From NCBI GenBank assembly GCA_016699205.1, contig CP064964.1, positions 630,001 to 662,000 of the forward strand: DNA of 32,000 nucleotides. Reading direction: 5' to 3'. This DNA comes from Candidatus Saccharimonadota bacterium. Lineage in GTDB: Bacteria > Patescibacteriota > Patescibacteriia > 2-12-FULL-60-25. Under the pieces are notes generated by a model. The model worked only from the letters and a program-made list of their open reading frames with translations, was not told where the DNA came from and searched no databases. Made by a program: the position numbers and the translations under genes. Below, piece by piece: positions 20,318 through 21,457 of the stretch (the stretch's first letter is position 1; each line of letters opens with the position of its first letter).

Positions 20318-20334
20318 GGTGAAACAATTAAATG

Positions 20335-20459
20335 AATTGTTTCACGTGAAACATTTTTGAATCGCTCGGTAATGTTTCACGTGAAACCATCTTAGAACTT
20401 GTTTCTTTATAATGTTAGTTTTGTTTGCCATCGCAGTAAGAATGTTTCACGTGAAACAT
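20335..20459 (+). repeat. 3x parS cassette, copy A (direct repeat of 20586-20712)
   Basis: About 125 bp, alignable by eye with copy B apart from a few substitutions and a small indel. Site centres are 35 and 70 bp apart. Confidence 0.85.
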
Positions 20460-20473
20460 TGTTTAATGCCTTT

Positions 20474-20549
20474 GGGCCAATAGCTCAGTTGGTAGAGCGC
20501 TGCATTCGCATTGCAGAGGTCAGGAGTTCGAATCTCCTTTGGTCCACCA
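20474..20549 (+). tRNA. tRNA-Ala (CGC), CCA encoded
   Basis: Hand-folded: acceptor GGGCCAA/TTGGTCC with the G3:U70 Ala identity pair, anticodon loop UUCGCAU, T-arm AGGAG-TTCGAAT-CTCCT. Confidence 0.9.
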
Positions 20550-20554
20550 TAATG

Positions 20555-20584
20555 AAAACCGCCAATTGGCGGTTTTTGTTTTTA
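20555..20584 (+). terminator. intrinsic terminator after tRNA-Ala
   Basis: AAAACCGCC-aatt-GGCGGTTTT followed by tgttttt. Confidence 0.75.
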
Positions 20585-20585
20585 T

Positions 20586-20712
20586 AATTGTTTCACGTGA
20601 AACATTATTGAATCGCTCGGTAATGTTTCACGTGAAACCATCTTAGAACTTGTTTCTTTTTTAAATGTTAGTTATGTAAACCATCGCAGTAAGAATGTTT
20701 TACGTGAAACAT
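20586..20712 (+). repeat. 3x parS cassette, copy B
   Basis: Direct repeat of 20335-20459. Site centres are 35 and 72 bp apart, and the third site carries a C>T change. Confidence 0.85.
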
Positions 20713-20982
20713 ATGGTTTATTGCTCTGGTTAGTTTCAATCATTTTCTACAAGCTACTATACTTATTGGTTAGTCACATTGGTTGCTTATCTACCCTCAG
20801 TTGTCTACTTATATTGATGTTATTAATACGTTGTTTCACGTGAAACATATGTTTATTCTTACTAGCTTCGCTATTTATCTTTATACAGTCTAATGATGTT
20901 TCAAATGACTTAATTTCAATGCAGATAGATACTATTTAATAGTAATACGGTTCTATATGTGAATGTTTCACGTGAAACATAT

Positions 20983-21278
20983 AGTTAGTTAGTTAGTTAG
21001 TTAGTTAGTTAGTTAGTTAGTTAGAGTTAGAAGTTAGTTAGTTAGTTAGTTAGTTAGTTAGTTAGAAGTAGTTAGTTAGTTAGTTAGTTAGAAGAAGAAG
21101 AAGAAGTAGTTAGATGAAGTTAGAAGTTAGTTGAAGTTAGTTAGTTAGTTAGTTAGTTAGAAGAAGAAGAAGAGTTAGTTAGTTAGTTAGTTAGTTAGTT
21201 AGTTAGTTAGTTAGTTAGTTAGTTAGTTAGTTAGTTAGTTAGTTAGTTAGTTAGTTAGTTAGTTAGTTAGTTAGTTAG
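20983..21278. repeat. tetranucleotide microsatellite (AGTT/TTAG)n interrupted by (GAA)n blocks
   Basis: About 296 bp. The longest uninterrupted run is about 26 units (21174-21278). (GAA)4-5 blocks lie near 21090-21106 and 21160-21172. There are stop codons in all six frames. Confidence 0.95.
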
Positions 21279-21457
21279 AGATGTGTTTGTTTCACGTGAA
21301 ACATTGTTATTACTTGTTCAATTAAATTGATTTATTCTGCAATTACGCATTTACTTCATGACTATTTAATTTATCAATGCGATTTAATTAATTTTTTTTG
21401 GCTAATATTAAACATTAAATATTAATATATATCTTTTACGACTCTTATTTATACCGG

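Follow-up and report, generated by a model that had tools for sequence, protein, structure and literature searches.

A dense array of nine parS sites, interleaved with two tRNA genes near the inferred replication origin of a Candidatus Uhrbacteria chromosome, as a likely compact centromere

Anatomy and chromosomal setting of the array

The stretch of DNA analysed here, 32 kb in length and called the window throughout, is chromosomal DNA of a Candidatus Uhrbacteria (CPR/Patescibacteria) genome of ~1.08 Mb; its DnaN, trigger factor and RnpA are exact matches to proteins of Candidatus Uhrbacteria bacterium (QQR60415.1, QQR60407.1 and QQR60412.1, respectively). Before the array the window carries the genes for ComEC, YchF, trigger factor, RnpA, DnaA, DnaN, a class A PBP (PBP1), PolA and S20 (rpsT), and after it the genes for three secreted proteins, followed by the start of a giant repetitive protein. 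The gap occupied by the array itself is bordered by rpsT (19833-20096, minus strand) and by the secreted-protein operon, which starts at ~21493. This gap had been described as ORF-free in a first-pass annotation of the sequence, correctly so, as the interval 20215-21492 contains no ORF of ≥80 aa. The GC content of the array region is 36-38%, compared to ~50% in the rest of the window, and an Rfam search of the region matched its tRNAs only.

Allowing up to two mismatches, nine matches to the 16-mer TGTTTCACGTGAAACA are found at 20338-21303, six of them perfect and three with one mismatch, and they are accompanied by one additional half-site (Table 1); the counts and coordinates given by the first-pass annotation were all confirmed. 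The chance expectation for this motif is 0.02 matches, none of 100 dinucleotide-preserving shuffles of the sequence reached nine, and the rest of the 32-kb window holds no further match at the same tolerance. The nine sites, packed into 966 bp, follow one another at start-to-start spacings of 35, 70, 146, 35, 72, 136, 132 and 324 bp, and they have in common the extended palindrome AAATGTTTCACGTGAAACATTT. The 16-bp palindrome that characterizes chromosomal parS, TGTTNCACGTGAAACA, is represented by the six perfect and three one-mismatch sites. According to Pillet et al. (2017), exactly this 16-bp parS is common to chromosomal Par systems 'whatever the species' and is a marker of the chromosome family (PMC5450999), which bears out the earlier reading of the motif as the consensus chromosomal site.

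Table 1. Features of the array region and of the dnaA-dnaN region, in window positions
Feature	Position	Strand	Remarks
dnaA	8587-9996		
dnaN	10270-11400		
DnaA-box-like clusters	8551/8572 (8551-8580) and 10012/10024/10034 (10012-10042)		flanking dnaA
Promoter-like site	20156..20184	+	upstream of tRNA-Arg; 10/12 consensus matches
tRNA-Arg(CCT)	20243..20317	+	left array boundary; same tRNA flanks the arrays in L259, L260, L135 and L228
Extra half-site GGTGAAACA	20319..20327	.	abuts 3' end of tRNA-Arg; conserved in strains
Direct duplication, ~251 bp apart	20335-20459 and 20586-20712	+	three sites each, flanking tRNA-Ala; direct-repeat families D4 (99% identical) and D5 (87% identical)
parS site 1	20338..20353	.	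perfect; between tRNA-Arg and tRNA-Ala; invariant in 8 strains
parS site 2	20373..20388	.	one mismatch, outer position 16, A to C (...AAACC); variant kept in strains
parS site 3	20443..20458	.	perfect
tRNA-Ala(CGC)	20474..20549	+	embedded between sites 3 and 4
Terminator-like hairpin	20551-20580		after tRNA-Ala
parS site 4	20589..20604	.	perfect; opens duplicated three-site unit; direct-repeat families D4, D5
parS site 5	20624..20639	.	one mismatch, A16C (...AAACC)
parS site 6	20696..20711	.	one mismatch, C6T (TGTTTTAC...); perfect in 7/7 other aligned strains
parS site 7	20832..20847	.	perfect; kept though flanking spacers are unalignable between strain groups
parS site 8	20964..20979	.	perfect
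(GTTA)n microsatellite	20982..21278	+	between sites 8 and 9; sole tandem repeat reported by TRF
parS site 9	21288..21303	.	perfect; ~170 bp upstream of promoter-like site of secreted-protein operon
Promoter-like site of secreted-protein operon	21458-21486		

Two tRNA genes, for tRNA-Arg(CCT) and tRNA-Ala(CGC), are interleaved with the sites, just as the first inspection of the sequence had noted. Because a promoter-like site precedes tRNA-Arg and a terminator-like hairpin follows tRNA-Ala, sites 1-3 are probably transcribed together with the two tRNAs. Both copies of the direct duplication on either side of tRNA-Ala have the same layout, consisting of a site, a 19-bp gap, a second site, a 54-bp gap and a third site. 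The (GTTA)n microsatellite is probably not part of the centromere function considered below; its length varies from 92 to 346 bp among strains, and it is absent in the two distant relatives L259 and L260.

The array lies close to the inferred replication origin. With oriC placed at the DnaA-box-like clusters that flank dnaA, the distance to the array would be ~10.3 kb, or ~1% of the genome (dnaA and dnaN at 8.6-11.4 kb, array start at 20338), in line with the earlier estimate of about 10 kb. The possibility that the array is oriC itself, or a cluster of DnaA boxes, was considered and rejected, as the interval 20200-21400 is without a DnaA-box match.

The cognate ParB of such sites is a protein with a ParBc N-domain, carrying the GxxRxxA CTP-binding motif, and an HTH. 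Neither ParA nor ParB was detected in the 32-kb window by Pfam, by motif regular expressions or, at E ≤ 10, by custom HMMs for ParB (from 102 sequences) and ParA (from 117), and hhalign comparison of the nine unassigned window proteins with ParA/ParB gave probabilities below 1% in every case. The statement that the window has no parA or parB gene is therefore confirmed by all four approaches, and relative to the array parAB is absent from 20 kb upstream and 11 kb downstream. No PF02195 domain was found in the flanks of the relatives' loci that we retrieved. A ParB homologue search with a Clostridia-type query, taken from the metagenome locus L209, returned only Clostridia relatives among the best 120 of 8000 candidates, and no ParB-bearing metagenome locus among those listed was CPR-like when its ORFs were compared with Uhrbacteria proteins.

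Conservation and turnover of the sites in strains and distant relatives

A look-up with S20 gave ten strain-level loci (L249-L258). Seven of their contigs span the whole gap and carry 8-9 sites per array (these seven include L254, which is the same contig and region as L003); in the other three, short contigs whose ends fall within or close to the array, 3-7 sites are present. Beyond the array, none of the ten has a further site in sequence of up to 20 kb. The short-read contigs L255, L256 and L258 end inside the array.

Seven strain loci were aligned with the window, eight strains altogether, over the region that covers sites 1-7. Among the eight, 109 of 112 site columns (97%) are invariant, as against 173 of 365 spacer columns (47%; Fisher p = 1e-25), and all 151 tRNA columns are invariant as well. 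Compared with the most divergent strains, the sites are 98-99% identical and the spacers 61-65%. Across two groups of strains the spacers between sites 6 and 7 cannot be aligned at all, and the sites remain intact.

The same synteny, namely dnaA, dnaN, PBP, polA, rpsT, the gap, three secreted proteins and a giant LVIVD protein, was recovered in distant relatives by a PolA homologue search. L259 (GCA_021413945.1), with a PolA 83% identical to that of the window, has ten sites, nine of them perfect, and five of the ten lie between the two tRNAs; L260 (GCA_040960095.1), with a PolA 61% identical, has ten perfect sites. Each of the two arrays occupies the same gap of rpsT, tRNA-Arg(CCT), tRNA-Ala(CGC) and the secreted-protein operon, with a different spacing of the sites and with unrelated spacers. 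The comparison of the locus in related genomes, which had been proposed as a check, thus found the array kept in the strains, in L259 and in L260.

Taken at the level of the alignments, these observations point to protein-binding sites under strong purifying selection. Both the 16-mers and the approximate number of sites appear to be maintained by selection; individual sites evidently move, duplicate and get replaced, and the array remains at one locus. With the 16-mers and their approximate number preserved and the individual positions turning over, the pattern has the signature expected of selected protein-binding sites. The confinement of the sites to one locus extends to all the Uhrbacteria DNA scanned at up to two mismatches: no site occurs outside the array in ~190 kb (L001-L008 and L249-L260), a total that counts overlapping loci of several strains and consists of origin-region DNA, at ~45 kb per genome. 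A dispersed repeat of the REP or MITE kind, for which copies outside the array in the window, L001-L008 or L249-L260 would be expected, was rejected on this ground.

Dense parS arrays elsewhere and known centromeres

How unusual is such an array? In species-representative genomes, a scan for two motif cores 5-35 bp apart returned at least 120 loci, from Streptomyces, Bradyrhizobium, Collinsella, Clostridia and others, and close pairs of the motif are common in these genomes; none of the loci exceeds 4-5 sites per kb among the matches listed. A scan of metagenome contigs for three motif cores also returned at least 120 loci, and among the matches listed 19 of 120 have eight or more sites per kb (at most one mismatch), 60 of 120 have parA-parB on the same locus, usually near the array, and 7 of 120 have dnaA (the latter two counts by the custom HMMs). 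Pairs, triplets and dense arrays of the motif are thus common in uncultured bacteria. The window's array is like the other dense metagenome arrays in having the same motif at 8-15 sites per kb, and it differs from about half of the loci listed, which have parAB close to the array; L148, L207, L154 and L192 are dense arrays beside parAB, and L135, L228 and L176 are dense arrays without it.

Two of the metagenome loci deserve separate mention, as they share with the window the association with tRNA-Arg(CCT) and tRNA-Ala. In L135, whose DnaA shares 81% identity with a protein from Candidatus Moranbacteria bacterium (DnaA homologue search), 15 perfect sites within 1 kb lie between tRNA-Ala(GGC)/tRNA-Arg(CCT) and dnaA-dnaN, so that proximity to dnaA is shared as well. 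In L228, 11 sites lie beside the same tRNA pair types, with DnaA boxes between the tRNAs; perfect DnaA boxes are present in or beside the arrays of both L228 and L260. The order of the tRNAs relative to the array in L135 and L228 differs from that in the window, and the association common to the three may therefore be an ancient linkage or a coincidence. All loci assigned to Uhrbacteria or Moranbacteria, and also unassigned low-GC loci such as L228, L176 and L202, have arrays unlinked to parAB. Dense origin-near arrays unlinked to parAB accordingly occur in at least two lineages of the Parcubacteria group.

Among the characterised clusters, the 10 parS sites of Corynebacterium glutamicum are spread over 35 kb and lie 73 kb from oriC (PMC7083940), and Caulobacter has at least five, with ParB occupying ~10 kb (PMC5815017). 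In view of these clusters and of the motif scans, the first-pass statement that parS sites on chromosomes normally occur scattered and single is too strong. The array resembles the chromosomal clusters of B. subtilis, C. glutamicum and Caulobacter in consisting of the same 16-bp palindrome, in being origin-proximal and mostly intergenic, and in forming one multi-site cluster. Compared to those of C. glutamicum and Caulobacter, however, it is 10 to 30 times denser (9 sites per 966 bp versus one per 2-3.5 kb), and it differs from the chromosomal clusters also in being interleaved with two tRNA genes, in having no parAB nearby, and in belonging to an uncultured CPR host with a genome of ~1 Mb.

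The first-pass annotation had likened the array to a plasmid-style centromere. Of these, sopC of the F plasmid consists of tandem 43-bp repeats, each with a 16-bp inverted repeat bound by SopB, and adjoins sopAB. The array is like this plasmid centromere of iterated SopB-bound sites (PMC3597684) in presenting many ParB-type palindromes in ~0.5-1 kb of non-coding DNA. Unlike sopC, to which a fixed-period plasmid repeat with a site sequence of its own belongs, the array is irregularly spaced (35-324 bp), uses the chromosomal consensus site, resides on a chromosome and has no par genes adjacent to it. Fixed-period tandem direct repeats are absent, since the array contains a single duplication at a distance of ~251 bp and the one repeat found by TRF is the GTTA microsatellite; instead of adjacent parA-parB on an extrachromosomal replicon, the context is one of chromosomal housekeeping genes. 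With its irregular spacing and parAB not adjacent, the plasmid-style label is loosely apt at best and fits poorly. True tandem arrangements of the motif do exist in IMG/VR, where nine contigs have parS triplets and six of these have arrays of 4-8 sites, several of them evenly spaced at 26-38 bp, and phage- or plasmid-like elements can therefore carry the motif as a true tandem centromere. A search of a plasmid collection with the array matched mostly tRNA-Ala and isolated parS sites.

To our knowledge, dense parS arrays of uncultured bacteria have not been described before and belong to no named family, and the literature searched contained no such description. Nor did that literature yield a paper on parS or ParB in CPR/Patescibacteria. 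Canonical in the sequence of its sites, the array stands out among known parS clusters by its unusual compactness, by the tRNA genes lying among the sites, by the lack of linkage to parAB and by having been conserved in more than one CPR lineage.

A predicted ParB loading zone and the competing explanations

Judged from its sequence, the feature is real, is non-random and has a function, and it has each of the properties of a chromosomal parS locus that could be checked: the consensus palindrome, a position near the origin, and sites that are under selection and locally confined within the DNA scanned. We therefore regard it as likely that the array is an origin-proximal chromosomal centromere consisting of nine canonical parS sites in a compact cluster, most likely acting as a ParB loading zone, and its biology is probably that of canonical ParABS. 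Indirect support for reading arrays of this motif as centromeres of ParB comes from other organisms, in which such arrays lie beside parAB. In the mechanism that we envisage, each site would nucleate a dimer of a ParB of the Spo0J type, and CTP-bound ParB clamps would slide from there and bridge onto the neighbouring few kb, so that one partition complex might form next to oriC, to be segregated by ParA and/or to load SMC. The presence of 8-10 sites within ~1 kb, or 15 in the Moranbacteria-like relative, would then allow ParB to be loaded at a high rate in one place. We note that in C. glutamicum one parS is enough (PMC7083940), and this scheme does not account for a need for nine. In addition, the probable tRNA transcription through sites 1-3 could disturb a stable ParB complex.

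ParB bound at the sites might instead serve mainly in local gene control or insulation, silencing or bounding either the surface-protein operon with the giant LVIVD gene or the tRNA unit. The promoter-like site at 21458-21486 follows site 9 at a distance of ~170 bp, in L249-L260 the array is always followed immediately by the genes of the same three secreted proteins and the giant-protein operon, and in P. aeruginosa ParB is reported to repress promoters adjoining parS3 and parS4 (PMC5521831). However, the arrays of L135 and L228 adjoin dnaA or DnaA boxes and not the secreted operon, leaving origin proximity as the common denominator, and silencing would not require 9-15 sites. We consider gene control as the main role to be unlikely, and such control would in any case be compatible with a centromere role.

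A second alternative assumes that the genome is without ParAB and that the palindromes are bound by a non-canonical protein, such as a paralogue of the ParB/Noc family or a lineage-specific HTH protein. The failure to find ParB in the window, the heavily reduced state of CPR genomes, and the lack of linkage to parAB in the Uhrbacteria and Moranbacteria loci and in L228, L176 and L202 would all be in keeping with this idea. Nonetheless, the 16-mer is identical to the chromosomal ParB site across phyla (PMC5450999), and arrays of the same motif lie beside parAB elsewhere; the exact sequence would have to be kept for a different protein by coincidence, which makes this alternative improbable in our view.

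Could the array derive from a plasmid or phage, as the centromere left behind after integration at the tRNA genes? Integration at tRNA genes is common, the region is rich in AT (36-38% GC versus ~50%), and the IMG/VR contigs mentioned above, nine with triplets and six of them with 4-8-site arrays, demonstrate that the motif occurs in viral sequences. But the flanks of the array are free of integrase, parAB and other mobile-element genes, relatives with as little as 61% PolA identity still have both the synteny and the array, purifying selection acts on the sites, and their irregular spacing is unlike that of the evenly spaced viral arrays. This origin is largely refuted by the conserved synteny and we hold it to be very improbable. 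Finally, it is scarcely credible that the palindromes are RNA hairpins for the processing or termination of the tRNA transcript, as sites 1-3 (five sites in L259) between two probably co-transcribed tRNAs might suggest, considering that the terminator-like hairpin at 20551-20580 precedes most of the sites, that all 16 bases are invariant, including the would-be loop CACGTG, with no compensatory variation seen, that Rfam has no match to them, and that the same motif forms arrays beside parAB elsewhere.

Returning to the centromere reading, one may ask whether it extends beyond this genome. In a broader and rather tentative version, CPR bacteria of the Parcubacteria group (Uhrbacteria, Moranbacteria) would share one centromere design, in which 8-15 parS sites form one ~1-kb array located at or near oriC beside tRNA-Arg(CCT)/tRNA-Ala and unlinked to parAB, with the site number under selection through duplication and turnover, giving high-capacity loading of ParB-CTP in tiny cells with few ParB molecules. 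We consider this generalization possible, though doubtful as it stands. An extreme form of it would involve a ParA-independent system or a non-canonical protein.

Irrespective of the details of the model, the array has several implications. Practically, it accounts for assembly breaks, as in the short-read contigs L255, L256 and L258, and it can serve as a marker of the origin region in MAGs. The natural 35-bp spacing of sites offers a test case for CTP-loaded ParB sliding clamps at nearly contiguous loading sites. The textbook picture, with its few scattered sites, needs revising in view of how common dense parS arrays are among uncultured bacteria. Lastly, chromosome segregation in the very small, host-dependent cells of CPR bacteria is essentially unexplored, and the array provides a concrete, conserved cis element with which to begin.

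Repeats in and downstream of the window's array

The ninth parS site of the window is set apart from the eighth by a (GTTA)n microsatellite (see the table), which lies ~180 bp upstream of a promoter-like site of the secreted-protein operon. The length of this repeat ranges from 92 to 346 bp across the strains compared, and it is missing from L259 and L260, the two more distant relatives. The microsatellite may act as a contingency or phase-variation locus; alternatively, it may be just a spacer prone to slippage. Three short-read contigs of the window's species (L255, L256 and L258) break off within the parS array and GTTA repeat or directly next to them, so the array is a cause of breaks in MAG assemblies.

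The window closes on the start of a gene for a giant, repetitive, T/N/S-rich surface protein, for which gene calls in relatives span 2,100-9,745 aa, with LVIVD repeats in several of them. Downstream of 29865 there are tandem repeats of ~1.33 kb each, and also three V-rich ORFs on the minus strand, nearly identical to one another, which look like antisense artefacts. GC skew takes a strongly negative turn in this region, which may contain a frameshift or a pseudogene or be misassembled.

Coordinates of the features considered in this part
Feature	Location	Detail
Two long overlapping ORFs	Window 6537-7628	6537-7256, minus; 6618-7628, plus
Interval between dnaN and PBP gene	Window 11400-11447; L001, L002 11160-12918	
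Broken polA	L249 11196-13871; L252 11199-13882	3-6 consecutive ORFs
(GTTA)n microsatellite	Window 20982-21278	~300 bp, between parS sites 8 and 9
Giant surface-protein gene, start	Window 26950-32000	Plus-strand ORF ending at 29865
Dense array with tRNA-Arg(CCT) and tRNA-Ala	L135 582-2012; L228 627-2051; window 20243-21303; also L259, L260	
Perfect DnaA boxes	L260 ~15750-15812	Within parS array
Perfect DnaA boxes	L228 ~770-800	Between two tRNAs adjoining parS array
Paired parS-like arrays	L203 98-9165; also L167, L134, L243, L236	

Gene-level differences near dnaA-polA

Two JGI contigs, L249 and L252, carry polA in pieces, most likely as a result of indel errors of long-read assemblies; the gene is whole (891 aa) in the window and in the other strains. 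The interval between dnaN and the PBP gene varies among strains by insertion or deletion of two genes, one an NTP_transferase gene and the other of 286 aa, which are present in five origin-region loci (L001, L002, L004, L005 and L006) and missing from this interval in the window and L003. As for the two long overlapping ORFs, the family match (YggU/DUF167) of the plus-strand ORF is restricted to its final ~88 codons (7362-7628), and the gene call of the relatives at this position is an 88-aa YggU/DUF167 gene alone; the plus-strand ORF in its full length is probably an over-extension.

parS arrays on metagenome and putative viral contigs

Each of five metagenome contigs of ~50% GC, L203 and four similar ones, holds a pair of arrays with some 20-28 parS-like sites apiece. 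Many of these sites are CGTTTCACGTGAAACA or ...AAACG variants, and L203 totals 48-54 sites across 9.7 kb. To our knowledge, all known parS clusters are far smaller. Between the paired arrays sits a 3-kb segment of two genes, one encoding a membrane protein and the other what looks like an OYE-type flavin oxidoreductase, as judged from its N-terminal sequence alone; parAB is absent within these five loci.

Triplets of the canonical chromosomal parS are also found on nine putative viral contigs from IMG/VR. On six of these the sites form arrays, with 4-8 members each, and in several of the arrays the spacing is even, at a period of ~26-38 bp. ParB is encoded in the fetched stretch of only one of the nine (L262). 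These arrays may be phage-plasmid centromeres employing the chromosomal parS motif.

tRNA genes and DnaA boxes beside dense arrays

Dense arrays are adjoined by tRNA-Arg(CCT) and tRNA-Ala (CGC or GGC) in Uhrbacteria, in the Moranbacteria-like locus L135 and in the metagenome locus L228, with order and orientation of the two tRNAs varying among lineages; different tRNAs lie near other dense arrays, namely tRNA-Val for L176 and L202 and tRNA-Gly for L182. The window's own parS array contains no DnaA boxes. Perfect boxes (TGTGGATAA / TTATCCAC) occur at the arrays of L260 and L228; in some lineages oriC may be overlapped or adjoined by the parS array.
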